64,000 nucleotides of DNA from an uncultured Acidobacteriaceae bacterium (lineage in GTDB: Bacteria; Acidobacteriota; Terriglobia; Terriglobales; Acidobacteriaceae). A program made the position numbers and the translations under genes. The stretch's first letter is position 1. Every line of letters begins with the position of its first letter. A model generated the notes under the pieces. It was not told the DNA's origin. It worked only from the letters and a program-made list of their open reading frames with translations, and searched no databases. The stretch is taken from NCBI GenBank assembly GCA_963796615.1, contig CAWCMJ010000019.1:194486-258485 (forward strand), in the 5' to 3' direction. This document shows, piece after piece, positions 1,081 to 13,227 of the stretch.

Positions 1081-1270
1081 GTGAGCAAGTTAGAGTGTGC
1101 TACAACCGAAATCAACAACAACCTGCTCGTGATGCGTTCTTGCCTGCCGTTTCCAAATGTGGGAGCCTACTGGACGCTCGCGTCCCGCGCCCCGGATGTG
1201 CCGCCACCCAGCCGCACAAGTTCAAAGCCAAACTCCTCGGATAGGAAGGCTCTTCCGTCGCCGCTCTGCC

Positions 1271-2185
1271 ATGCGCCGTATTACACTCCCAATGGGGTTT
1301 CCAGACTTGCGAACCATCTTTTTCAACTCGCGCGGTCTGCGTGCCGGATGGCGTCTTCTGGTTTTCGTCGCTATCTTTGTCGCTCTCAGTTTCCTGGTAG
1401 ATGAGGTCGCTACCAGGTTCGTCCACGTCACTGAGCGATCTTTCCTTGATCCGGTTTCGTTCATCTACGCTGAACTGCAGTCAGTGGTTCTCGTCTTGAT
1501 CGCTACGTGGACCATGTCGCGCATCGAGCGCCGCCGCTTCGCTCAGTACGGCATCCCCTCCGTTCGCCGATCGTTCGGCCCTGACTTTTGGGTCGGCATC
1601 GTCTGGGGCATCGCTTCTACGTCCGCCATCATCGGCCTGATCGCCGTGTTCGGAGGATACAGCGTTAAAGGACTCGCCATTCACGGTGCTACATTGTGGT
1701 ACTTCGTTGTGGTATGGCTTGTCGCCAATCTGCTCATCGGCTTTGCCGAGGAACTCCAGTTTCGCGCCTACCTGCTGGCTACCACCGCCGACGGCATCGG
1801 ATTCTGGGCCGCGGCAATCCTGCTCTCCGTGGGCTTCGGCGCGATGCATTACTTTCTCAAGCCGCACGAGCGCTGGGAAGACTTCGCCTCCACCGCACTG
1901 CTTGGCTTGTTCCTGTGCTTTACCCTAAGGCGCACCGGCTCGCTGGCCTTCGCCATCGGATTCCATGCCGCCTTCGACTTCGCGAATTTATTTGTCTTCT
2001 CAGGTCAGAACGCCGGCGAATTCGCCGTGGGCCATCTGCTCGACACAACCTGGCACGGCCCCGATTGGCTCACTGGTGGCCTGCTCGGTCCCGAAGCCAG
2101 TTGGATGGTCTTCCCGGTGATCGCCGTCATGTTCGTTGTGTTCGCAGGGCGGTATCGAACGAGCAAGTTCCCACTTCTGGACTGA
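1271..2185 (+). CDS. CPBP family intramembrane glutamic endopeptidase (CAAX protease/Abi family)
   Basis: Motifs FAEELQFRAYL, GFGAMHY and IGFHAAFDF in a multi-TM protein. ATG at 1271 (MRRITLPMG..) is preferred over the upstream ORF start at 1157. Confidence 0.8.
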   Translation: MRRITLPMGFPDLRTIFFNSRGLRAGWRLLVFVAIFVALSFLVDEVATRFVHVTERSFLDPVSFIYAELQSVVLVLIATWTMSRIERRRFAQYGIPSVRRSFGPDFWVGIVWGIASTSAIIGLIAVFGGYSVKGLAIHGATLWYFVVVWLVANLLIGFAEELQFRAYLLATTADGIGFWAAAILLSVGFGAMHYFLKPHERWEDFASTALLGLFLCFTLRRTGSLAFAIGFHAAFDFANLFVFSGQNAGEFAVGHLLDTTWHGPDWLTGGLLGPEASWMVFPVIAVMFVVFAGRYRTSKFPLLD

Positions 2186-2499: not shown

Positions 2500-2970
2500 T
2501 TGTCGGACAGCTACAGTACGTTGAATCCCAGCCAGCGGCAGCGCCTGTTGGTCACCTGCCGGCATATTGACAGACTGCTGCGTGATGTCGAAGACACGCT
2601 GCACGCGTCCGCGTCCAAGTCTCCTTTCCCTGATTACGTCAGCGACATCTCTCCCACTCAGCAGCAGGCGATTGAAGCTGACATTGCCCGCATCCGGGCC
2701 CAGCTCCTGCAGGTACTGGCCGGCCAGTCGCTGGCTCCGCTGCCGCCGCGTATCTCGGCGGCGCACTCCATTGACGTGAGCCTCACCTTCGCGGAGATTG
2801 CCATTGCCGAACTGGCGCCGAATTACATGCGCGGGTACGGACCGGTATCGCCCGAGGCGGCGACAGACCTCGGCGGGATTGCGGAAACGCTGCAGTCTGC
2901 CGTAAAACAACTGCATCGCTACCTTTTGCAGACGCACCCTGTCGAGGGAGAGACAGTCCATGACTCATAG
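2500..2970 (+). CDS. Hypothetical, predicted all-helical protein (156 aa), first gene of the DUF190/dynamin operon
   Basis: ORF with a TTG start (no in-frame ATG near the 5' end; an alternative TTG lies at 2521). Plausible composition (IEADIARIRAQLLQVL). The antisense ORF 2278..2961 is Arg-rich junk. Confidence 0.5.
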   Translation: MSDSYSTLNPSQRQRLLVTCRHIDRLLRDVEDTLHASASKSPFPDYVSDISPTQQQAIEADIARIRAQLLQVLAGQSLAPLPPRISAAHSIDVSLTFAEIAIAELAPNYMRGYGPVSPEAATDLGGIAETLQSAVKQLHRYLLQTHPVEGETVHDS

Positions 2971-3033
2971 GACGCCGGCGCTTCTGGACCACGACGGCGG
3001 AAGCTCGCCGCGGAGTAGAAATCGAGGAGGAGC

Positions 3034-4110
3034 ATGCTTACCACCGGACCAGCCAAGAAAGTGAGCGTCTACGTCATCGAGGGCCACACCTATCACGGCA
3101 CCGCTTGTTATGCGGCCATCCTCGATTACCTGTTCTTCCGGGGCATCTCCGATGCAACCGTTACCCGCGGCATGGCCGGCTTCGGGACTGACCACAAGCT
3201 GCACACCTCGCGACTAGTGCAGGTTTCTGACCAGATGCCGATCAAGATCGAGTTCATCGAGACCGCGGAGCGGGTCGAGCAAGTCTTGCCCAAGCTGACC
3301 GAGATCGCCGCGCATGGACTGATCGAGGTGCACGATACGACGGTGATCTGCCCGTCCACCGACAAAGACAAGCTGCAAGCGGAAGTGCCCGCCGTCAAAC
3401 TCGAGTCCAAAGCCAAGATGATGCGAATCCTGATTGGCGAGCACGACCGATGGCACGACCAACCTCTTTATCACGCGCTGGTGCAGGCCTTGCGGTCGAA
3501 CGACATCGCCGGAGTCACGGTGTACCGGGGAATCCTGGGGTACGGGGCGAACCGCCGCATTCACAAGGATTCGACGCTTAACCTGTCTCACGATGCGCCC
3601 ATCCTGCTGACGGCGGTCGATAGCGAGGAGAAGCTGCGGGCGGTCATTCCGGTTCTCGACCAGATGGTGCTGCAAGGGTTGGTGGTGCTCTCCGACGTCG
3701 ATGTCATCAAGTATTCGCACGCTCAACCTCTGGCCGGAGACACTGGGGGTGCAGAAATGAAGCTGGTTGGCCAAGCCAAGATGTTGCGCATTTACTTCGG
3801 TGAGGACGACCGGTGGCAGGGGCGTCCGCTGTACCAGGCCATCGTCGAGCGCTGCCGCGAGTTGGACATTGCCGGCGCCTCGGTGTATCGCGGTTTTGAA
3901 GGCTATGGGGCGAGCACCATGATCCGCAAGTCGCATCTGTTCCGGCGGTCGTCGGATGCGCCAATTCTGGTGCAGATCGTTGACACCGCGGAGAACATCC
4001 AGCGCCTGATACCGGCATTGGACGAAATGGTAGCGGAAGGACTAATCGCCACCTCCGACGTTGAGGTCATCAAGTACGTGCATCAGCAGGGAGAGCATCC
4101 ACAGTTGTGA
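3034..4110 (+). CDS. Triple DUF190 (UPF0166, PII/GlnB-like fold) domain protein
   Basis: Three tandem copies of about 100 aa of the DUF190 signature: KVSVYVIEGHT..VTRGMAGFG; KMMRILIGEHDRWHDQPLYHALV..VTVYRGILGYG; KMLRIYFGEDDRWQGRPLYQAIV..ASVYRGFEGYG. Each ends in (E/D)V.VIKY. Confidence 0.85.
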   Translation: MLTTGPAKKVSVYVIEGHTYHGTACYAAILDYLFFRGISDATVTRGMAGFGTDHKLHTSRLVQVSDQMPIKIEFIETAERVEQVLPKLTEIAAHGLIEVHDTTVICPSTDKDKLQAEVPAVKLESKAKMMRILIGEHDRWHDQPLYHALVQALRSNDIAGVTVYRGILGYGANRRIHKDSTLNLSHDAPILLTAVDSEEKLRAVIPVLDQMVLQGLVVLSDVDVIKYSHAQPLAGDTGGAEMKLVGQAKMLRIYFGEDDRWQGRPLYQAIVERCRELDIAGASVYRGFEGYGASTMIRKSHLFRRSSDAPILVQIVDTAENIQRLIPALDEMVAEGLIATSDVEVIKYVHQQGEHPQL

Positions 4111-4889
4111 CCACGGCAAACTCCGACTCGGGGAACTGCGGACCGCCGGCGACGCTGCCGAGCATCTTCGCGCGAGAGGCGGAGATCGAGGAACTGCGAG
4201 CGCGCTTCGGCCGGCGACGGTCGTTTCTGTTGCATGGGCCCGCAGGCGTCGGCAAGACCTTATTATTGTCGGCCGTATGTCCGGAATTCCGTGATGTGCT
4301 GTGCTGCGCGCTGAATCCGACCCCGCAGGCGCTGTACAGGAACCTGGCGGGAGCGCTGTTCGCGGCGCGAGACCAAAAGATCACGAAGGCGTGCCCGGGC
4401 GGATTCGCGGCCCTGCAAGAACAGAAGTCGGCGGTGGCGTTGAAAGGCATCGTACGCGAGGCGCTGCGAAATTCCGGATACCTGCTGGTGCTCGATCACC
4501 TCGCACGCCCCTCGCAGTCGCTGGCGGCATCGATCCGCGAGTTGATGGTGGAGTGTTCCCTGCCGGTGGTCGCGGTATCGCGGTCCGCTCACATGGAAGA
4601 CGCGGGTTTCGTCTTGCCGCTGTTTCCAGATAGGGCTGAGAAATTCGCGTTGCGGAATTTCGATTCCGAAACGGCGACACGTTTTGCCGCGTGGTGTGCG
4701 CACCGCGAAGGATTGACCGCCGAAAACCTGCAGCAGTTTCTGGACAAGGTCGCGGTTTACAGCGCAGGCAATCCCGGCGCCATCGAGCACATGATTCGGC
4801 TGGCGAAATCGCCCCAGTACTCCTGCGGCGGGCAGATCAAGACGGCCCCGCTGTACATCGACTTCAAGATGGCGATGGTCAGTCAATGA
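4107..4889 (+). CDS. AAA-type ATPase (P-loop NTPase, ORC/Cdc6-like)
   Basis: Walker A LLHGPAGVGKTLLL and Walker B-like LLVLDH. The GTG start overlaps the upstream stop (GTGA at 4107-4110). Confidence 0.7.
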   Translation: MTTANSDSGNCGPPATLPSIFAREAEIEELRARFGRRRSFLLHGPAGVGKTLLLSAVCPEFRDVLCCALNPTPQALYRNLAGALFAARDQKITKACPGGFAALQEQKSAVALKGIVREALRNSGYLLVLDHLARPSQSLAASIRELMVECSLPVVAVSRSAHMEDAGFVLPLFPDRAEKFALRNFDSETATRFAAWCAHREGLTAENLQQFLDKVAVYSAGNPGAIEHMIRLAKSPQYSCGGQIKTAPLYIDFKMAMVSQ

Positions 4890-6634
4890 GCTCCGATCCG
4901 GCCGCCAACCTGCCACGGGTGAATGACCCTGCAGTTTCCACCCCGGCTGCGACCGATGGGCAATCTCTCAACCGGCTGGCGGAAGTCGCCGATCAACTCG
5001 GCGAAAGCGCGATCGCCGCCAACATCCGGCAGCTCGCGACCAGGGTCCACGAAGGCCGCTTCTTCGTGGCTTGCGTCGGCCAGTTCAAGCGCGGCAAGTC
5101 AACCCTGCTCAACGCCCTCACCGGAGAAGCCATCCTGCCGACCGGCGTGGTGCCGGTGACGGCGGTGCCCACGGTGCTTCGCTACGGCAACGCGCGATCC
5201 GCGCGTGTCCTGATTGGCGGCGCATGGAGCCCGGTGCCGGCCGAAGACCTTGCGCAGTACGTTTCCGAGGAGTTGAATCCGGAAAACTCGAAGCAGCTTG
5301 AAGGCGTCGAGGTATTTCTTCCGTCGCCGCTGCTGGCCTCGGGCATGTGCCTGGTCGATACCCCGGGAATTGGTTCGGTCTTCGCCGGAAACACCGAGAC
5401 GGCGAAGGACTTCATCCCGCAGATTGACGCCGCCATCCTGGTGGTGGGCGCCGATCCGCCCATCTCGGGCGAAGAACTCGCGCTCATTGAGGCCGTGGCC
5501 GCCAACGTTTGTGAGATTGTGATCGTGCTGAACAAGATCGACCGCGTTTCCCTGGCGGATCGAAAAGAAGCGTCGGCATTCGCCCGCAAGATTCTGCGGA
5601 CGCGGCTGAAAAAGCCCGTGGTTCGCATCTATGAGGTCAGCGCGCTCAACCGCTTGAACAGCTCAAACACCGGCGACGACTGGAGCGCGCTGCTCTCGGA
5701 CCTCGCCGCCCTCGCCGCCGGCTTCGGCCAGGCCATGACGCGTTCGGCCGCCGAGCGCGGGCTTCGCCGCTTTTCGGCTTCCCTGCAGCGTTCCATCGCC
5801 GAACGCCGCCGCGCATTGCACGAGCCGATCGCGGCCTCCGAGCAGCGCATGGTAACGCTGCGGGCAACGCTGGACGAGGCCGAGCAATGGCTGCGCGATC
5901 TGGGCACGCTCTTTTCGGCGGAACAGTTGCGGCTCTCCAACGCACTGCTGGCGCGCCGCAAAGAGTTCTTACGAAGTGCGCTGCCGCAGGCGAGAAACGA
6001 ACTCACGCTCGAATGCAATGGAGTCACAACGGCGTTTGGCCCGGCACGACGACGCGAAATGCTGGCCCTGGCACAGGGCGTCGCGCGCCGCCACGTCATG
6101 CCCTGGCTAGACAACGAGGAGACACAGGCCGAAGAGCTCTACGGTGCGGTCACGCAGCGCTTCGTCAATCTGGTGAATGGTTTACTGCAGCGGATCGCCG
6201 AAGAGCAGTCCGATTGCTTCTGCAATTTGCCCAAGTCTCTGGAAACCGAACAGGGCTTCCGCATCCGCTCCCGCTTTTATTTCCAGGACATGATCGGCAT
6301 CGCGCAGCCGGCGTCGCCGCTCATCTATGTGTCGGACGTGCTGCTCGGGATTCTCGGCATACGCTATTTTTTCCGGAAGTCCGCCAACAACTTCCTCGAG
6401 CTCTTGATGGATACCAATGCCTCGCGCGTCCAGGGCGATGTGGAACAGCGGGTAGTCGAGAGCCGCCAGCGACTGGAGTTCGAAGTGCGCAAACTGCTTC
6501 GCGAGGTAAGCACCTCTGCCGAGCAGGCCCTAACCACGGCGCGGGCGCTCGTGGACGCAGGCAGTACTGCCGTAGAAACTGAGCTTGCGCGCCTTCGGGG
6601 CCTCAAACAACAGATCGCGGCCGCCGCCGCGTGA
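4886..6634 (+). CDS. Dynamin-like GTPase (bacterial dynamin-like protein)
   Basis: G1 GQFKRGKSTLLNAL, G3 LVDTPGIGS, G4 LNKID, and a long helical C-terminal stalk. The ATG at 4886 overlaps the ATPase stop (ATGA). The upstream part of ORF 4691..6634 is an out-of-context extension. Confidence 0.8.
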   Translation: MSSDPAANLPRVNDPAVSTPAATDGQSLNRLAEVADQLGESAIAANIRQLATRVHEGRFFVACVGQFKRGKSTLLNALTGEAILPTGVVPVTAVPTVLRYGNARSARVLIGGAWSPVPAEDLAQYVSEELNPENSKQLEGVEVFLPSPLLASGMCLVDTPGIGSVFAGNTETAKDFIPQIDAAILVVGADPPISGEELALIEAVAANVCEIVIVLNKIDRVSLADRKEASAFARKILRTRLKKPVVRIYEVSALNRLNSSNTGDDWSALLSDLAALAAGFGQAMTRSAAERGLRRFSASLQRSIAERRRALHEPIAASEQRMVTLRATLDEAEQWLRDLGTLFSAEQLRLSNALLARRKEFLRSALPQARNELTLECNGVTTAFGPARRREMLALAQGVARRHVMPWLDNEETQAEELYGAVTQRFVNLVNGLLQRIAEEQSDCFCNLPKSLETEQGFRIRSRFYFQDMIGIAQPASPLIYVSDVLLGILGIRYFFRKSANNFLELLMDTNASRVQGDVEQRVVESRQRLEFEVRKLLREVSTSAEQALTTARALVDAGSTAVETELARLRGLKQQIAAAAA

Positions 6635-6851
6635 TCCCTTTCCCGAAATCGCCAAAGCCATCGACCTTATGACGGACGAGACAATCTCCGTCAGCGACCA
6701 CCAGTTGAAAGAGCTTGGGTGTTCGAGTGTGCCTCCTGCGGCCGGGCAGGAGGCGTCACAGTACGGCAGGCACCCCCCACACGATAGCTCATTTTATTGA
6801 TAACTGTTTTATTTGTAATAGCTTACTGCGATTAACCTCTCGGCAGCAATG

Positions 6852-6892
6852 GTGGCCACTATATTGACATTTGGTGGCCACTTCGGTATATT
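6852..6892 (+). promoter_or_regulatory. Sigma70-like promoter (TTGACA-17 nt-TATATT) bracketed by two GTGGCCAC palindromes
   Basis: TTGACA at 6864-6869 and TATATT at 6887-6892 with a 17-nt spacer. The palindrome GTGGCCAC sits at 6852-6859 and 6874-6881. AGGAG at 6911-6915 precedes the ATG at 6923. Confidence 0.55.
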
Positions 6893-6922
6893 TGATTTGG
6901 AATTGCAGTCAGGAGATTTGTT

Positions 6923-7351
6923 ATGGATATCGACTTTCTATCGGCGGTTCGCTCCCTGTCATCCTTGCGGCAGGAACCAGAGCTTGAAAACCGCCTCTCC
7001 GAATTGCTCCAAAACACTTCAGGCAACGCTCCCTTGACCATCAAGGGCGCTCGGGATAAGTTCAGTGCGGTCAATAGTATGGCAAAACGCGGACGGATCA
7101 TGATTATAAAAGGGAGGCCGGGAGAGGAAACGGTCATTGTCTCTATCAAGTCCCTCGCTGCGTTGATCCGGGCGGCATCTGCCAACTTGAGCTTCGCCGA
7201 TGCGCTTGACGCTGCCGGATTTCAACCTGCGGGGCAGCGACTTATACAGAGCGAGGGCTTCAAGCGTGACGACAACCTCGTACTCAAGTCGCAACCGGAC
7301 GAGGCCGGCGAATTGAATACGGGAGAGCTTGCAGCGGGCGCCGAAAACTAG
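6923..7351 (+). CDS. Phd/YefM-like antitoxin-family protein with N- and C-terminal extensions (142 aa)
   Basis: The core LTIKGARDKFSAVNSMAKRGRIMIIKGRPGEETVIVSIKSLAALI resembles the Phd/YefM fold signature (..ITR.G.P.AVLVS.eeyeal). Good SD. First gene behind the promoter. Confidence 0.55.
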   Translation: MDIDFLSAVRSLSSLRQEPELENRLSELLQNTSGNAPLTIKGARDKFSAVNSMAKRGRIMIIKGRPGEETVIVSIKSLAALIRAASANLSFADALDAAGFQPAGQRLIQSEGFKRDDNLVLKSQPDEAGELNTGELAAGAEN

Positions 7352-7362
7352 GCAGTTGCCGT

Positions 7363-7794
7363 ATGATTTACTTGCTCTCAACCCAATCTCTGCTCGATTT
7401 AGTCACCGGGGAAGTCCTAATGACGACTTGGCTGCGAGGGATACCCTTGCAGCCGGTCGAAATCAGCACCGTGTCCATTGGCCGCGTTCTGGAAACGATC
7501 CGGAAGGTCGAGAACATCGCCGCCCGGAAGCACTATGAGCGGCAGCTTTCCATTATCGTGACCGCTGCCAACCACATTCAGGGCGTGGTACCGTTCGATG
7601 AGGATGCGGCTAAAATCTGGTCCGAGTTGCAGGGCCTGACGCTAAAATATACTCTGCCCGACGGAACCATGACCGACTTGAGCAGCGAGTCGCGCATGGT
7701 CGTTGCCACCGCGCTCGCTCGCGGCGCGACGCTGGTCGAGGCCCAGCAACCCTATCACCAGTCCATTGAGCGCTTGACCATCGAAAGCCCATGA
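7363..7794 (+). CDS. PIN-domain (VapC/FitB-like) protein, apparently lacking canonical acidic catalytic residues
   Basis: MIYLLSTQSLL (compare ..LLDTNV..), V..WL, VVPFDEDAAKIWSEL (compare ilpFD..aA..wa.L), and SRMVVATALARGATLVE (compare D..IAAtAl.hg..LvT.N). By eye the D/E/D/D positions read S/R/E-or-S/none. Confidence 0.6.
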   Translation: MIYLLSTQSLLDLVTGEVLMTTWLRGIPLQPVEISTVSIGRVLETIRKVENIAARKHYERQLSIIVTAANHIQGVVPFDEDAAKIWSELQGLTLKYTLPDGTMTDLSSESRMVVATALARGATLVEAQQPYHQSIERLTIESP

Positions 7795-8798
7795 CTTCTG
7801 ATCTCCAAATCACTGGTCCAGAGGTGCGCCCGGATCCCGCTCCTCCACCTTTCCAGATCTTGTGTCTTTCCGGCGGTGGTTATCGGGGCCTTTATACCGC
7901 TGCGCTTCTTGAGGAACTCGAAAAAGAGGAAAATGCGAACAAGTCGCTCTCCAAGGTTTTCGACCTTATCGCGGGCACTTCGATCGGCGGCATTCTCGCG
8001 ATTGGATTGGCTGCTGGGATCCCCGCAAAGACCCTACGCGAGTCGTTCGAAAAAAGCGGCAGCGCCATCTTCCCGCGTTCTCTTAAGGTTCTTGGCGTTC
8101 CAGTGTTTCCGCGTTTGGGTAGTGGGATGCTGTTCAGCAAGTATGGTGCAGATGGGCTCCGAGCGACAATTGAGGCGGTTCTCGGCAGCACCGTTTCCCT
8201 TCGTCCCTTAAAAGATCTGAAGGAGAAAGTACTCATCGCGAGTGTCGATGTTACCAACAGTGGTCCGAAGCTCTTTGGCATCGATGGGGCAGATTCTGCC
8301 ACTCCACTGCTTGACATCGCCCTCGCAACTTCCGCCGCTCCCACTTATTTTCCTGAACACCGGATTGACCAGAATATCTACGTTGACGGCGGACTGATTG
8401 CCAATGCACCCGATATCATCGCCTTGATGCATACTTTGCAGCGCGAACCTTCGGCGCAAATCCAAATGCTCAGCATTGGGACAGTCGGTGAATTGGGCGG
8501 AGAAGCCTCGCGTGCAGCGAACCGCCGTGGCTGGCTGCTACGGGGCAAGGGATTGGTGGATCTCACTCTGGCAGCGCAGGAGAAGCTCTCGATCAGCCTC
8601 ACTGCGAATTTCCTTGGCCAGAATTACATCCGTCTCGATGCCAACCCATCCCAGGACCAGCAGAAGGCGATCGGGCTGGACCGAACTGACCAGGAGGCTA
8701 CCGACACTCTCAAGGCGCTGGCCCGCAAGACTGCCGAAGACGGACTCAAGCAGCACCAGGCCAAACTCCGTGCAATGCTCAATCGCACGGCCAAGTAA
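7791..8798 (+). CDS. Patatin-like phospholipase
   Basis: Oxyanion hole LSGGGYRG, nucleophile elbow GTSIGG, and catalytic Asp in YVDGGLIANAP. The ATG overlaps the stop of the PIN-like gene (ATGA at 7791-7794). Confidence 0.85.
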   Translation: MTSDLQITGPEVRPDPAPPPFQILCLSGGGYRGLYTAALLEELEKEENANKSLSKVFDLIAGTSIGGILAIGLAAGIPAKTLRESFEKSGSAIFPRSLKVLGVPVFPRLGSGMLFSKYGADGLRATIEAVLGSTVSLRPLKDLKEKVLIASVDVTNSGPKLFGIDGADSATPLLDIALATSAAPTYFPEHRIDQNIYVDGGLIANAPDIIALMHTLQREPSAQIQMLSIGTVGELGGEASRAANRRGWLLRGKGLVDLTLAAQEKLSISLTANFLGQNYIRLDANPSQDQQKAIGLDRTDQEATDTLKALARKTAEDGLKQHQAKLRAMLNRTAK

Positions 8799-8899
8799 TC
8801 CCGGCTGGTGTTCCACTCCGCCCCCAAAATTTCCGAATCCTATTTAGTCGGCACTCCGTCCCGCCTTCAGTTAGCAGGGTGGAGGTTTCTTTTGGCTGA

Positions 8900-9193
8900 T
8901 TAGGCAGCCATTTCGGCTCCCCGCCGCCGGGTTAACTTGGAGCGTTTATGCACTCCTTCGTTCTCTACGCAATACACAATCACGACTTCGCCGATGGCCA
9001 AGCTGCGGTATCCAGGGCCGAAATCTCCATCTCGCCAACGGCCCAGACACGGAAAGGTAGCTTGCGCGAGAAAACGGTCAGTGAGGATATCAATCAGGCG
9101 GTCGGCCGTCTCGGGCATGCGGCGCGCAGCCAGACTTCTCCGATAGCGAAGCAAACCGGGCGCCCGCAATTGCCATTGGCAGTTGTGGGCCAA
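8900..9193 (-). pseudogene. ParE/RelE-family toxin-like remnant (no cognate antitoxin gene seen)
   Basis: PETADRLIDILTDRF..LGRWRDGDFGPGYRSLAIGEVVIVYCVENEGV resembles the ParE core. The N-terminus and C-terminal tail look non-canonical or truncated. Only about 50 nt lie upstream before iscX. Confidence 0.35.
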
Positions 9194-9246
9194 CTCGGCC
9201 TGTCGCGACTTGCGTTATAATCCCTCACACGTTCCGGAGGAAGCTC

Positions 9247-9474
9247 ATGGCACAGGAATTGACTTGGGAAGACATCAGCAGAATCGGGATCACGCTCTCC
9301 AACACGCATCCTGCGGTTGAGCCGGACAAGGTCGAGTTGAAACGCTTGCACGATTACGTGACCCAGCTCAATGAGTTCAAGGGTGACCCCGAGAAGTTCG
9401 ATGAGCAGAAGCTGGCGGCGATCCGCTCAGCGTGGATCACGGAGTTCCTGGAGCGCACCCGCAACTGGGCATAG
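9247..9474 (+). CDS. iscX: Fe-S cluster assembly protein IscX (YfhJ family)
   Basis: LTWEDISRIGITLSNTHPAVEPDKVELKRLHDYVTQLNEFKGDPEKFDEQKLAAIRSAW aligns along its length with E. coli IscX ([59 protein letters not shown]). Confidence 0.8.
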   Translation: MAQELTWEDISRIGITLSNTHPAVEPDKVELKRLHDYVTQLNEFKGDPEKFDEQKLAAIRSAWITEFLERTRNWA

Positions 9475-9583
9475 ACCCCTTGCCGTAGCTTTCCCTTCAC
9501 AGCACAAGCGTGTGCGGGTCACACCGCGATTCTTTGCCGCAGGCTTATACTGGCCGGTGGTTAAAAGCAGTGAGAGGAATGCC

Positions 9584-10168
9584 ATGCCGGAAATCAAGCC
9601 TCGTTACGAATTTCGTATCTGGGCCGAGTCTCTCGCGCCACTGCGCGCCAAGTTGGAAGCACTGGGCCGGGCGCGCGAGGCGAAGAGCGCGGAAACCTAC
9701 CTCATCTCCAAGGTCACCGAACGCTGCAACGCCAAGATCCGCGCCGAACTGATGGACATCAAGGTATTGGTCGCTGAAGACCGCGGCCTCGAACAGTGGA
9801 AGCCCATTCTAAAAGCCGGCTTCCCCTTGAGCCAGCTCGACATCGCCAGTCAAGTTTTCCCTAGCCTTCAGGTGATGGCTCCCACGCTGGTCAAATCGGC
9901 TTATACCTTTGACGAGTTTCTGAATTCAGTGGTGCGTCCGGAACCGAAAATCGCGGTGGTTGAGGTCACCAAGACGCGCTATCAGTTCACCATCGGAGCG
10001 TGCGCCGCCGAGTACTCGCAGATCACGATCAACGATGCGCCGCGAGATACCGTCGCCGTGGAATCCACCGATGCCGATGCCGTGCTGGAGTTGGTGGCCA
10101 AGCTCGGCATTCACGAACCAAACGTCAGCTACATTCGCGAAATCCGCCGCATTCTGGGCTGGGCATAA
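9584..10168 (+). CDS. Hypothetical protein, possibly a divergent CYTH-like domain
   Basis: ATG at 9584 preceded by GAGAGGA. The N-terminal YEFRIW resembles a degenerate ExExK CYTH motif. Sits directly upstream of a canonical CYTH gene. Confidence 0.5.
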   Translation: MPEIKPRYEFRIWAESLAPLRAKLEALGRAREAKSAETYLISKVTERCNAKIRAELMDIKVLVAEDRGLEQWKPILKAGFPLSQLDIASQVFPSLQVMAPTLVKSAYTFDEFLNSVVRPEPKIAVVEVTKTRYQFTIGACAAEYSQITINDAPRDTVAVESTDADAVLELVAKLGIHEPNVSYIREIRRILGWA

Positions 10169-10189: not shown

Positions 10190-10654
10190 ATGGGCAAAGA
10201 GATTGAGCGCAAGTTCCTGGTGAAGGGCGATTCCTGGCGCGCCCAGGCGCACGGCAAGCGCTACCGGCAGGGTTATCTGAGTACCGTCAAGGAACGTACC
10301 GTTCGCGCGCGTGTTGCCGGAGACCAGGGCTTCCTCACCATCAAGGGCATTACCGTCGGCGCCAGCCGTTCGGAGTACGAATACGAGATTCCGCTTGCCG
10401 ACGCTAACGAGATGCTCGACAAACTCTGCGAGCGCCCGATCGTCGAGAAGACCCGCTATCGCCTTCCTCAGGACGACATCGTCTGGGAGATCGATGAGTT
10501 CGAGGGCGACAATCGCGGACTTATCGTGGCCGAGGTCGAACTCAAGGATGAGCACCAGAGCTACCCGAAGCCAGATTGGCTGGGCGAAGAAGTGACGGGC
10601 GATCCCCGCTACTTCAACGCAAACCTGGTGGCGAAGCCGTTTACGACCTGGTGA
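10190..10654 (+). CDS. CYTH domain protein (class IV adenylate cyclase / triphosphatase family)
   Basis: N-terminal EIERKFLV (ExExK), then RIR-type strands (VRARVAGDQGFLTIKG), EYEYEI, and WEIDEFEG..GLIVAEVEL. Confidence 0.8.
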   Translation: MGKEIERKFLVKGDSWRAQAHGKRYRQGYLSTVKERTVRARVAGDQGFLTIKGITVGASRSEYEYEIPLADANEMLDKLCERPIVEKTRYRLPQDDIVWEIDEFEGDNRGLIVAEVELKDEHQSYPKPDWLGEEVTGDPRYFNANLVAKPFTTW

Positions 10655-10663
10655 CGAACCGCT

Positions 10664-11704
10664 CTATTCTCCGGCGCGAGCGTAATAGCCCTGGCGCGCC
10701 TGAACCTTATAGTCGCCGTTCTTCGTCTTGATCTGGATCTTGCGATACGATCCGTCGAGCTTGCGGTTGGTGGGGGTGTAGCCCACGTTGTACTGGCTGC
10801 GGAGTTCCTGCTGGATCTGCTCGAATGCCGCCCGAAGTTTCTGCTGGTTGTTGCCGACTTCGATCACGCGCCCGCCGGTTTCCTCGGCCAGCTTCTTCAT
10901 GTCGCCCAGACCGAAGCCTTGATACCAGCCTCCACGGTCTGCGATCAGGATGACGTAGCACATGGTGTCGGACTTCTGCGCGGCTTCGATGGCGTCGCGA
11001 ATTTTGAGCTGGCTGCCTTCGTCTTCCCCATCGGTGAAGACGATCATGGCTTTGCGCCCAACCTCGTTCTTCAGCTTCTCGTCGGAGGCCAGATAAATCG
11101 CGTCATATAGCGCGGTGCTGCGCGGACGCGCCGTCGGCACCGGACCGCCGCCCAAGCCCACCGGTCCGCCGCCGGCCGAGCCGCCGCCGATCTGTAACTT
11201 GTCGAGCGAGCGCTTCAACGACGCGACATTGTTGGTGTAGTCCTGGTCGAGGTCGATGTCAGAGTCGAAGTTGATCAGGAAAGCCAGGTCCTTGGGCCGC
11301 AGCACACTGCGCAGGAACTCCACGCACGACTCCTGCTCGATGGTCAGCACGCGCGTCTGGCTGGGACTGGTATCGATCAGCAGCCCCAGCGTCAGGGGCT
11401 GGTCCGATTCCCCGGCAAAGTACTTGATGGTTTGCGGCTTGCCGTCTTCAAAGACCTCGAAGTCGTCTTTCTGCAGGCCCGGAATCAGCAGTCCATGCTT
11501 GTCTTTCACGTTAAAGAAGATGTTGACGACGTTCACCTGGGCCTTAAAAACCTCGCCCGACGCCTCGGCCTCCGGCTCCTGCGTCTTTTGTCGAGGCACC
11601 GTGGACTGGGGCGGTTCCTGGTCATGCACGGTGAATTGCGCCATCAGCGACGCCGCCGGCAATAGCAACATCACAACGAATAAAAAGTTACGGAGACGGA
11701 TCAA
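10664..11704 (-). CDS. VWA domain-containing protein (acidobacterial VWFA-related family, TIGR03436-like)
   Basis: Signal peptide LIRLRNFLFVVMLLLPAASLMAQ. VNVVNIFFNVKDKHGLLIPGLQKDDFEVFEDGKPQTIKYF followed by LIDTSPS (MIDAS-like). A TTG start near 11704 after GGAAAGAAGAAGG is preferred over the ORF start at 11836. Confidence 0.75.
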   Translation of the reverse strand: MIRLRNFLFVVMLLLPAASLMAQFTVHDQEPPQSTVPRQKTQEPEAEASGEVFKAQVNVVNIFFNVKDKHGLLIPGLQKDDFEVFEDGKPQTIKYFAGESDQPLTLGLLIDTSPSQTRVLTIEQESCVEFLRSVLRPKDLAFLINFDSDIDLDQDYTNNVASLKRSLDKLQIGGGSAGGGPVGLGGGPVPTARPRSTALYDAIYLASDEKLKNEVGRKAMIVFTDGEDEGSQLKIRDAIEAAQKSDTMCYVILIADRGGWYQGFGLGDMKKLAEETGGRVIEVGNNQQKLRAAFEQIQQELRSQYNVGYTPTNRKLDGSYRKIQIKTKNGDYKVQARQGYYARAGE

Positions 11705-11841
11705 CGAAATACCTTCTTCTTTCCGGATACTGTCATTGTATTGCAATCCCACTGGCTGTAACACCAGGCGGGATGTCGCGACTCGGCGCTTGCGGTTATA
11801 CTTAGGCTGAGTTCCGGCTTTTTGGAGACCAGCCACCGATC

Positions 11842-13227
11842 ATGCTGAAGCGTGCCTGCGCTACTTGGGTTTTCTTGCTGGCGGCAGTGTGTTTGTCCGC
11901 CCCGTTTGCGCTTGCACAGCAGCCTTTGCCGGATGCTCCGAGCCCGCAGAAAAACGCCCCTCCGCCGGCTCCTGAGCCCTTGCCCGACGTCACCGCCCCA
12001 GTCCCGGGCATGGACGACGACTCTTCTGGCACTTCCAAGACTAACCCGCCGGGCACCGGGAAGACTCGTCAGGACGCAAATACCCCGCCCAGCGGGAGCA
12101 ATCCGCAGGCCCCGCCCCCCGGATCGCAGGGCATCAAGACCGTGCCCGCCGGGCAGGCCTCCGGCGGCCCGGGCAACGCTTACGACGAGCTCTTCAAACT
12201 GGAAGTCAACGTCAACTTCATCAGCGTGCCAGTCACTGTCAAGGACAAAGACGGAAGAATGGTCGACGGCCTGCTGGCGCAGGACTTCAGCATCTACGAA
12301 GACAGCGTGAAGCAGGCGATCACGTACTTCACCAGCGACGCCTTCCCGCTCTCGGCAGCGGTTATCATCGATCTCGGCATCTCCGAAACCACGCTGAAGA
12401 AGGTGGCCTCGACCTATTCCGCGCTCGACGGCTCCTTCGGCCCCTTCGACAAGGTCGCGGTCTTCACCTATGGCAACACCGTGCACAAGCAGGCGGACTT
12501 CGGCGACACCCGGCGGCTGCAATTGGCGCTGCAACGCATCCGCGATTTGCAGGGACAGAATCCCGGCTCGCCCGTTGTCGGCGGGCCTTTTGGCTCCGGC
12601 CCCACCACCAACGGCAAGCCGGTCGATCCCGGACAACTTCCGCTCACCAACCAGGCCGGCACCCGCGAGTCGCACGTGCTCAACGACGCCATCCTGACCG
12701 CCGCCACCGAGCTGGCCCACCAGCCGCGCAGCACCCGCAAGATCATCTTCGTCATCAGCAGCGGCTATGAATACGGCAGCCGCGCCAGCTATGCCCAGGT
12801 CCTGAAAGTTCTTCTCACCAACAACGTCGCCATTTACGCCGTGGGCGTCGAGGGTTCGGCCATCCCCGGCATGAACAAGCTCGACAAACTCCACATCCCC
12901 GGACAGGGCTACACCGACATTCTTCCCAAGTACGCCAACGCCACTGGCGGAGACCTCATCGACTCCTACTCGCGCGAGGCGATTGAGAGCGCCTACCAGG
13001 CCATCACCTCGCAGGCCCGCAACCAGTACACCCTGGGCTACACCACGCCGCAGCGGGCATCGAGTTCGTATCGTGACATCGAAGTCCGCGTGAAACGCCC
13101 CGGCCTGCTGGTCACCGCCAAGCACGGCTACTACCCACTGCCTCCGCAGAAGGAAGCGCTGCCCGCAACTGCTCCCCCCGCCGACACGACTGCGAAGCCG
13201 TCAGCTCCATCCGGCGCCTCGCCATAG
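11842..13227 (+). CDS. VWA domain-containing protein (paralog, TIGR03436-like) with a Pro-rich linker
   Basis: Signal peptide MLKRACATWVFLLAAVCLSAPFALAQQ. VNVNFISVPVTVKDKDGRMVDGLLAQDFSIYEDSVKQAITYF. Divergent from its paralog 10664..11704. Confidence 0.8.
   Translation: MLKRACATWVFLLAAVCLSAPFALAQQPLPDAPSPQKNAPPPAPEPLPDVTAPVPGMDDDSSGTSKTNPPGTGKTRQDANTPPSGSNPQAPPPGSQGIKTVPAGQASGGPGNAYDELFKLEVNVNFISVPVTVKDKDGRMVDGLLAQDFSIYEDSVKQAITYFTSDAFPLSAAVIIDLGISETTLKKVASTYSALDGSFGPFDKVAVFTYGNTVHKQADFGDTRRLQLALQRIRDLQGQNPGSPVVGGPFGSGPTTNGKPVDPGQLPLTNQAGTRESHVLNDAILTAATELAHQPRSTRKIIFVISSGYEYGSRASYAQVLKVLLTNNVAIYAVGVEGSAIPGMNKLDKLHIPGQGYTDILPKYANATGGDLIDSYSREAIESAYQAITSQARNQYTLGYTTPQRASSSYRDIEVRVKRPGLLVTAKHGYYPLPPQKEALPATAPPADTTAKPSAPSGASP

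Follow-up and report, generated by a model that had tools for sequence, protein, structure and literature searches.

A predicted fluoride-riboswitch operon joining a dynamin-like protein, an AAA+ ATPase and a helical protein family in Terriglobia

Bacterial dynamin-like proteins (DLPs) are known to tether, fuse or repair membranes and to respond to envelope stress, and they are usually encoded in operons as pairs with accessory assembly domains (PMC6104087, PMC8844932, PMC12998192). Here we analyse a stretch of 64,000 nucleotides from an uncultured Acidobacteriaceae bacterium (contig CAWCMJ010000019.1, positions 194,486 to 258,485; this whole stretch is called the window below), in which a predicted fluoride riboswitch precedes same-strand genes for a helical protein, DUF190 domains, an AAA+ ATPase and one DLP, called DLP-B. 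Among solved sequences DLP-B is closest to DLP2 of the Campylobacter jejuni DLP1/DLP2 pair (5owv_C of 5owv; PMC6104087), then to IniA (6j72) and Nostoc BDLP (2j68). In that pair a 119-aa N-terminal assembly domain of DLP1 grips helix 1 of DLP2 (PMC6104087), and relatives of the window operon likewise encode two DLPs per operon, one with an extra N-terminal domain as in DLP1. The C. jejuni pair differs from the window, where the helical protein is a separate gene, there is no second DLP, the single DLP is accompanied by an AAA+ protein and the predicted inducing signal is fluoride. The assembly domain of C. jejuni DLP1 has no detectable fold similarity to the four-helix protein found here, and the resemblance is one of analogy, not homology. 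The iniBAC genes of Mycobacterium respond to cell-wall inhibitors through a protein regulator. This stress-induced system (IniA/IniC; 6j72), to which a role in the upkeep of the plasma membrane during chemical stress is ascribed, also combines DLPs with a small non-GTPase partner; the window operon differs in its predicted control by an ion-sensing RNA, in lacking an IniB-like protein and in its additional AAA+ protein and PII-like protein. A functional model for the repair that we propose below is provided by Bacillus subtilis DynA, a DLP that clusters on the membrane upon membrane insults (PMC8844932, PMC12998192), although DynA is a two-headed fusion, has no riboswitch reported in these two papers and has no fluoride link.

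On the side of the switch, the window shares with the fluoride riboswitch super-regulon (RF01734; PMC7266159, PMC11139923) the class of RNA and the position of that RNA in the 5′ leader of co-oriented operon genes, and its related loci carry the known members CrcB, Na+/H+ antiporter, enolase, pyrophosphatase and MutS-like ATPase, as well as a universal stress protein (USP). The helical, AAA+ and dynamin-like proteins are not among the members described in the searchable part of that literature, which excludes the original 2012 gene list. The DUF190 protein is PII-like and its gene lies directly 3′ of crcB in relatives, which recalls the PII-like regulators that act with channels (GlnK-AmtB), and its three domains match a trimeric PII; unlike a homotrimer, it is encoded in the window as 2+1 (3-in-1 in the assembly), and the channel gene is absent from the operon. 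The combination of genes had not been recognised in the sequence-only reading that preceded this work, and the searchable literature agrees, since no paper there joins a fluoride riboswitch with dynamin or DUF190 and the matches for crcB plus dynamin are irrelevant; in a 2024 review of fluoride resistance the term ‘GTPase’ does not occur. The riboswitch regulon described here is thus a known one, while its conserved effector module and one of its domain families are new. The leader and the operon consist of the following features.

2258-2335, + strand: fluoride riboswitch aptamer (crcB motif, RF01734), Infernal 34.4 bits, full-length model match
2319-2354, + strand: predicted expression platform, an alternative helix in which AUGACUCC (2319-2326) pairs with GGAGGCGU (2347-2354)
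2500-2970, + strand: helical protein gene, 156 aa, TTG start
3034-4110, + strand: DUF190 open reading frame (ORF), 358 aa
3034 to about 3759 (two domains) and 3757-4110 (one domain), + strand: ancestral DUF190 genes, as indicated by comparison of the junction
4107-4889, + strand: AAA+ ATPase gene, 260 aa, GTG start
4886-6634, + strand: dynamin-like protein gene (DLP-B), 582 aa

The four + strand ORFs, the 63-nt gap between the helical gene and the DUF190 ORF (2971-3033) and the two 4-nt overlaps (GTGA at 4107-4110 and ATGA at 4886-4889), which had been described before from the letters alone, are all present in the sequence, and the DUF190, AAA and dynamin-like identities proposed at the same time were recovered as Pfam matches (DUF190 three times, AAA_16 and Dynamin_N). 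The TTG start of the helical gene at 2500 agrees with the N-termini of its homologues. In the nearest relative (L089) the gene order is as in the window, with the same 63-nt gap and a 4-nt overlap at each junction. Judging from the comparison with relatives given below, the true operon would be one of five genes, the DUF190 module being counted as two.

The suggestion that the leader contains a fluoride riboswitch proved right. The aptamer is the sole Rfam family detected across the 64-kb window (E 8.8e-6, computed for the whole of it) and sits 165 nt 5′ of the first gene on the same strand. Since its score lies at the gathering score of RF01734, which is 34 bits, the call was tested comparatively in the related loci. 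The Infernal alignment shows the AACCGC / GAUGA core and both pseudoknot strands, GGAGU (P1 loop) and ACUCC (3′ tail); these positions are invariant in 49 related leaders, and the invariant aptamer core GGUGAAGGAGUUCA...GAUGAUGACUCCUGA is common to the window and 48 related leaders. Of the 72 related loci with more than 300 nt of 5′ sequence, a motif search finds the switch 5′ of the cluster and co-oriented with it in 60, and in 14 submitted loci the same-strand upstream copy reaches the Rfam gathering score with 35-59 bits; the motif match of L016 falls below it, and the Rfam-confirmed copy of L001 is on the minus strand only. In ten of the twelve motif-negative loci further operon genes (HEAT, enolase, USP, phosphoesterase) extend to the contig end, so that their 5′ ends are simply missing, which leaves only L001 and L078 without explanation.

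The expression platform is predicted from the same comparison. Its strand AUGACUCC is at the same time the 3′ pseudoknot strand of the aptamer, it can base-pair with GGAGUCAU further downstream, and the alternative helix encloses an inner hairpin (GACGAG at 2328-2333 with CUCGUC at 2339-2344); about 45 nt 3′ of the aptamer are also conserved in the related leaders. In 49 distinct leaders the 14-pair helix is 97.8% paired, versus 32-45% when the partner is slid by 1-3 columns. The base changes in it are mostly one-sided and the covariation is weak because the sequences are close, so that the pairing relative to the slid controls is the main support. No U-tract follows the alternative helix, and the candidates for the read-out are Rho-dependent, translational or other; the minimum-free-energy fold of the leader has a z-score of only −1.4. 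From these comparisons, regulation by fluoride and membership of the operon in the fluoride regulon are predicted with good support, and we hold them to be very probable; the polarity of the switch would be ON. It is noted that in L089 an Acido-Lenti-1 small RNA (RF01687, 46 bits, 502-566) lies about 280 nt 5′ of the fluoride riboswitch, and no match to it is found in the window. It is also noted that a gene for a CAAX/Rce1-like membrane protease (window 1157-2185, same strand) ends 73 nt 5′ of the riboswitch; it is probably unrelated to the operon, because neither L089 nor L090 has such a gene among those called 5′ of its riboswitch.

The related loci were gathered in three ways: genomes scanned with an AAA+ protein alignment yielded at least 6 loci, metagenomes scanned with the helical protein yielded 303 relatives, 80 of them being retained, and look-ups of exact products added the nearest relatives L089 and L090 and also L007. 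Architectures were mapped by tblastn and ORF maps of 90 loci. Among the 18 helical-seeded loci with at least 7 kb downstream, the AAA+ gene is present in 17 and a full-length DLP-B in 17, CrcB and DUF190 are both present in 12, and a second DLP, fused to the helical domain, occurs in 9. Helical protein, AAA+ and DLP-B occur together in 17 of these 18 loci and are the conserved core, with CrcB and DUF190 being optional. The shortest architecture is riboswitch-helical-AAA-DLP, and a common one is the same with CrcB and DUF190 inserted. The longest architecture, in which Pfam checks were made, begins with the riboswitch, Na+/H+ exchanger, USP, metallophosphoesterase, enolase and a HEAT-repeat protein, and continues with a fusion of the helical domain to the second dynamin (about 690 aa), CrcB, a Cys-rich protein, DUF190 (2+1), AAA+ and DLP-B. 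The association of the genes proposed from the window is thus strongly conserved in related genomes, so that the lack of conservation named beforehand as refuting it is not seen, and their order is the same in L089. In the distant clades L004, L005 and L006, by contrast, the order is shuffled with the trio still together: L004 reads riboswitch-CrcB-DUF190-DLP-AAA-helical and L005 riboswitch-AAA-helical-CrcB-...-DLP, both having kept the switch, and L006 is cut off upstream.

Based on the remnants that are found in some leaders, the short operons seem to have been derived from the long form by deletion. Truncated pieces of Na+/H+ antiporter or USP genes lie between the switch and the helical gene in L019 (5490-5744), L021 (798-1058), L035 (368-487) and L036 (500-619), which suggests such an origin of the short forms, and deletion would also account for the unconserved 165-nt spacer of the window. 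The window operon would be a trimmed version of a larger fluoride-stress operon that is common in Terriglobia (Acidobacteriota). The Cys-rich family with CxxC pairs (about 204 aa) is encoded between crcB and DUF190 in long operons (L001 6260-6874, L005 9634-10248), a longer Cys-rich protein of L029 (4315-5256) matches DUF6062, and the HEAT-repeat protein is encoded directly 5′ of the helical-dynamin fusion in long operons; the Cys-rich and HEAT-repeat proteins are uncharacterised members of the same fluoride operons.

In the window, the genes for the helical protein, DUF190, AAA+ and DLP are the only ones under the switch and there is no exporter; CrcB is not found by tblastn in the 64 kb, nor are clustered CLC motifs. 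Together with L089 and L090, its two nearest relatives, the window belongs to a sub-lineage that has DUF190 and lacks crcB. The statement made earlier that the system has no ion channel therefore holds for the 64-kb window and these two relatives, but not for the family, where crcB lies within the operon in 12 of 18 related loci. Related operons carry CrcB, Na+/H+ exchanger, USP, metallophosphoesterase and enolase; of these, the exporters, the antiporters and enolase belong to the fluoride genes classically found with riboswitches (PMC11139923). The earlier idea of an action other than export fits the present locus, but most relatives pair the same genes with CrcB and the Na+/H+ antiporter, and the helical/AAA+/DLP module would supplement export and not replace it.

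The description of a single “triple DUF190” gene did not survive the comparison. Pfam PF02641 (DUF190) matches three stretches of the 358-aa ORF (E 1.2e-97, 320.8 bits in total, with a P-II co-hit; solved relatives are PH1503, 2dcl, and TM0021, 1o51), and the window is the only one among the DLP-cluster loci where the three are in a single ORF. In about 35 related loci with both parts on the contig there are two ORFs in different frames joined by an ATGA or GTGA overlap, one of 241 aa with two domains and one of 117 aa with one domain, and the 90% identity cluster of the window protein otherwise contains 241-aa and 117-aa proteins and one 89-aa fragment. Alignment with L089 and L090 shows that a single base, near 3732-3733 and just 5′ of the junction, has been added in the window. 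The stretch 3725-3760 holds CTGGCCGG, and with one base fewer it gives the 241 + 117 aa gene pair, in which ...QPLPETLGVQK* and the ATGA overlap at 3757-3760 are restored; the +1 frame of the window itself reads ...PETLGVQK*, matching the C-terminus ...QPLPETQETQK* of the relatives. The fusion is thus of one base, and it would be a recent mutation or, more likely, an assembly indel; a designed single-chain trimer was considered and, in view of the one-base insertion, rejected as the native state of the lineage. Two other DUF190 triples in the protein database, of 359 aa, are both on contigs of long-read metagenome-assembled genomes (MAGs), and both show the ancestral stop in the +1 frame, one contig being plainly frameshifted in stretches, so that caution is needed on single-ORF fusions in long-read MAG assemblies. 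The 359-aa calls come from L091 (8576-10080) and L092 (8601-10080), which are simple crcB-DUF190 pairs without dynamin or AAA+. The unit of three PII-like domains encoded 2+1 fits a pseudo-trimer. The usual context of DUF190 is beside crcB, which is not so in the window, L089 and L090, whereas 12 of 18 other loci have crcB; from this distribution DUF190 appears to be an optional partner travelling with crcB and not, as had been suggested, a sensor co-opted by the module, the sensor being the RNA.

The first protein of the core, the helical one, belongs to no Pfam family, and its AlphaFold model (predicted confidence, pLDDT, 82) consists of four long helices. It has 162 close homologues, and a profile search among 1.84 billion cluster representatives gave 1127 relatives at E <= 1e-3. 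Of the best 150 profile matches about 40% are roughly 670-710 aa long, and Dynamin_N begins near residue 200 in nine of nine long members scanned. As the helical domain is fused to Dynamin_N in the long members, the free-standing protein would be a split-off N-terminal domain of a dynamin. CdvB/ESCRT-III, CopM and 14-3-3, which were the best Foldseek rows, were considered as its fold and rejected as noise (E not below 1).

DLP-B itself matches Dynamin_N (PF00350) with E 2.8e-26 and 93 bits, against a cut-off of 27. Its motifs G1 (GQFKRGKS, 65-72), G3 (DTPG, 158-161) and G4 (NKID, 216-219) are conserved across the family (39 sequences). The G domain is followed by about 330 residues, and among them hydropathy and the conservation in the 39 sequences reveal a conserved, moderately hydrophobic patch at about 457-497, a candidate membrane paddle. 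The window carries one DLP only, although DLP genes are usually, if not obligatorily, paired in one operon.

The AAA+ protein matches Pfam AAA_16 (E 6.5e-10) with additional weak matches of the STAND type, and has 563 homologues. In an alignment of the AAA+ protein the Walker A motif GPAGVGKT is invariant, and in the Walker B motif LVLDH D130 is invariant and a nearly invariant H131 takes the place of the catalytic Glu, so that the protein may be a nucleotide switch rather than a motor. R159 and S160 of an SRS motif (158-160) are invariant and S158 is nearly so; this motif we take to resemble the SRC motif of replication factor C (RFC), of the arginine-finger type. The C-terminal tail PLYIDxK is invariant too. 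The model (pLDDT 82.6) has an alpha/beta core plus lid fold, and its top Foldseek matches are RuvB, RFC subunits, Cdc6/Orc1, TnsC and NB-ARC, with probability 1.0 and TM-score up to 0.65. The protein is of the clamp-loader / initiator / STAND-like type.

Based on these results we propose, tentatively and at somewhat less than even confidence, that the operon encodes a machine for membrane maintenance that is built on the dynamin, has the helical protein as adaptor and the AAA+ protein as switch, and is induced under hydrogen fluoride (HF) or F− stress, with DUF190 as a PII-like regulator that usually partners CrcB. In the model, fluoride would bind the aptamer at 2258-2335, by which the leader would be freed from the alternative helix, and this release would switch on transcription or translation of the five translationally coupled genes. 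The helical protein, the AAA+ protein and DLP-B would then form a nucleotide-driven, peripherally membrane-bound remodelling or repair machine, where the helical protein, which many relatives have as a fusion with a dynamin paralogue, would for that reason be the dynamin's adaptor or assembly domain, and the AAA+ protein would be the switch of assembly or disassembly. The machine would protect or reseal the cytoplasmic membrane during HF/F− stress, and the three DUF190 domains would make a PII-like pseudo-trimer, the regulator that normally accompanies the CrcB (Fluc) channel. That the proteins of the operon are functionally linked we infer because their co-occurrence is conserved despite the shuffled order and because the helical domain is fused to dynamin; the proteins of the module may also form a physical complex, and a role in membrane repair would follow by analogy with other bacterial DLPs. 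It is known that fluoride stress is tied to low pH via the weak-acid accumulation of HF (PMC4144673) and that envelope genes respond to fluoride in several bacteria (PMC11139923).

Several points weigh against this proposal. On the side of the RNA, the riboswitch score of the window (34.4 versus 34 bits) is barely at threshold, a consensus scan finds no canonical terminator on the + strand between 2335 and 2500, and an unconserved 165-nt spacer precedes the start codon. On the side of the proteins, the helical model has no structural relative (Foldseek versus the PDB gives nothing below E = 1) and is not matched by Foldseek to the C. jejuni DLP1 assembly domain; no protein of the module has a transmembrane segment, the assignment of the paddle has the conserved, moderately hydrophobic patch as its sole basis, and the AAA+ protein, lacking the Walker B glutamate, may not be a motor. 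Nothing so far ties fluoride in particular to membrane damage in these organisms. Moreover, the loci were baited with the helical or AAA+ protein, on which the co-occurrence figures are conditional, and they come from one bacterial class, Terriglobia, save one MAG labelled Verrucomicrobiia.

Rather than maintaining the membrane, the dynamin GTPase and the AAA+ protein might be induced simply as replacement or fluoride-tolerant copies of P-loop proteins that are poisoned by fluoride or by MgF3−/AlF4−, which we consider unlikely. Consistent with it, the related operons carry enolase and metallophosphoesterase and separate switches carry pyrophosphatase and MutS-like ATPase; among the known targets of fluoride, enolase and pyrophosphatase are simply made in excess by bacteria (PMC11139923), and GDP·AlF4− is bound by the G domain of a bacterial DLP in a crystal form (PMC6104087). 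The separate switches are seen in two related loci, both metagenome contigs, the units being as follows.

L077, 496-2879 and 14508-17253: units of a fluoride island, with three riboswitches in this locus
L053, 3221-5616: the counterpart

In both loci a second, divergent fluoride riboswitch (47.7 bits in L077 and 43.3 bits in L053) precedes an inorganic pyrophosphatase and a third dynamin paralogue, whose genes overlap by 4 nt in L077, and a third switch of L077, directly after DLP-B, is followed by a 189-aa membrane protein and the MutS-like ATPase. The pyrophosphatase-dynamin units are an independent support for the link between dynamin and fluoride; that pyrophosphatase and DLP-C, the third paralogue, are under their own switch also fits the logic of a target. 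However, bacterial DLPs are generally non-essential, so that little would be gained from compensating their inhibition, no housekeeping paralogue was identified, and it is left unexplained why the helical protein, AAA+ and DLP-B stay together through the shuffling of order and why up to three DLP paralogues occur in one island.

A separate observation concerns transporters: in L001 a minus-strand fluoride riboswitch (unit 10564-12408) precedes an ABC-transporter ATPase and a 308-aa protein without Pfam match, and this unit, which runs towards the end of the dynamin gene from the opposite strand, may encode another transporter under fluoride control. Similar ABC/permease matches, where the genes alone were seen, follow DLP-B in L009, L010, L013, L030, L053 and L062.

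It could also be supposed that the module serves the transporters themselves, by regulating, clustering or quality-controlling CrcB/Fluc and/or the Na+/H+ antiporter, with DUF190 as a PII-like plug or regulator as GlnK is for AmtB and with DLP, AAA+ and helical protein organising a membrane patch or the insertion of the dual-topology channel. DUF190 and crcB do co-vary perfectly in the helical-seeded sample (12 of 12 together), and DUF190 lies directly 3′ of crcB in the DLP-less loci L091 and L092. DUF190 is in the PII-like superfamily, as its P-II Pfam co-hit indicates, and has been proposed by others as a channel modulator (PMC3543383); a DUF190 gene, flJ, also occurs in actinomycete fluorination gene clusters, that of S. 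cattleya included. Yet the trio is found with neither crcB nor DUF190 in 6 of 18 loci, and the window lineage keeps DUF190 and the trio with no crcB in the operon, and none within the 64 kb of the window, so that the trio is not strictly dependent on a channel encoded in cis. We regard this explanation as decidedly unlikely.

A bolder version of our proposal, which we consider improbable when taken as a whole, is that DLP, helical adaptor and AAA+ are an effector devoted to fluoride defence, which is independent of export and is itself a direct sensor of fluoride. Here F− with Mg2+ or Al3+ would form GDP·MgF3−/AlF4− in the G domain of the DLP, this mimic of the transition state would lock the G-domain dimers and bring about membrane tethering or sealing as fluoride accumulates, and the AAA+ protein would reset the trapped DLP assemblies. 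Al3+ is assumed to be abundant in acid peat and soil. If true, it would mean a fluoride sensor at the protein level and a resistance mechanism not reliant on export.

Very improbable, in our estimation, is that the DLP machine releases vesicles, like LeoABC, and so sheds damaged envelope or deposits of fluoride or aluminium fluoride. The sequestration of fluoride is discussed as a resistance strategy (PMC11139923), and both PADLOC and sequence similarity relate DLP-B to LeoA/LeoBC-type DLPs; this similarity, however, is generic to all bacterial DLPs, and the conserved genes of the operon include none for envelope, lipoprotein or secretion functions.

That the operon is a phage-defence or general stress module unrelated to fluoride with a riboswitch match by chance, an alternative raised in the sequence-only reading and suggested by the contribution of B. 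subtilis DynA to phage resistance (PMC8844932), by a gene for a CapV phospholipase of the type found in cyclic-oligonucleotide-based anti-phage signalling systems (CBASS) 1.2 kb downstream and by the window score lying only at threshold, is extremely improbable and, by the comparative data, appears largely refuted, because the switch is conserved at the homologous position in dozens of loci (up to 59 bits), the partners in the operon are fluoride genes, no PADLOC system is matched, and the CapV unit is separate, has its own promoter-like site and is absent from L089. In PADLOC (PADLOC-DB 2.0) no system was matched by the operon proteins: the helical, DUF190 and AAA+ proteins have no match, and the GTPase alone matches the LeoA and LeoBC models weakly (E 1e-11 and 7e-9), which is generic homology. 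The reading of the operon as a defence system was accordingly rejected, the CapV-like neighbour being a separate, non-conserved unit. This unit of three coupled genes is preceded by a strong sigma-70-like site (TTGACA-17-TATATT, 6864-6892) and is composed as follows.

6923-7351 and 7363-7794: genes with no family match
7791-8798: CapV-like gene (CBASS-type phospholipase activated by cyclic GMP-AMP, NF041079, 271.6 bits versus a cut-off of 200), overlapping the preceding gene by ATGA

No CD-NTase was found among the ORFs scanned up to 10.7 kb, and since the unit is absent from the nearest relative it looks like an inserted orphan-effector islet. It is also noted that 3′ of the operon L089 has (6649-9703) an IscX-like Fe-S assembly gene, a gene for a 195-aa protein and a CYTH-domain gene (PF01928), and that the window ORFs 9247-9474 (75 aa), 9371-10168 (up to 265 aa) and 10190-10654 (154 aa) are in the same order, matched by eye only; two of these three were scanned and gave no NCBIfam or PADLOC match. 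If they correspond to the genes of L089, the CapV unit sits between the operon and conserved flanking genes.

Finally, we return to the proposal of a membrane maintenance machine and to what the operon means. The operon connects two poorly understood matters, namely the roles of bacterial dynamins and the ways in which bacteria cope with fluoride beyond export, and it suggests that bacterial fluoride defence has a branch not described so far, which may act otherwise than through export. A defined and cheap predicted inducer (sodium fluoride, NaF, at low pH) thereby becomes available for a bacterial dynamin system, as do conserved partners, namely the AAA+ protein and a four-helix adaptor family that is absent from Pfam and has more than 1000 cluster representatives. 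Natural variants are on hand that differ in the presence of CrcB, in the number of dynamins (one, two or three) and in whether the adaptor is fused or split. Moreover, the operon may help to explain how Acidobacteria manage in acidic soils and peat, where the weak-acid accumulation of HF would concentrate fluoride inside the cells.

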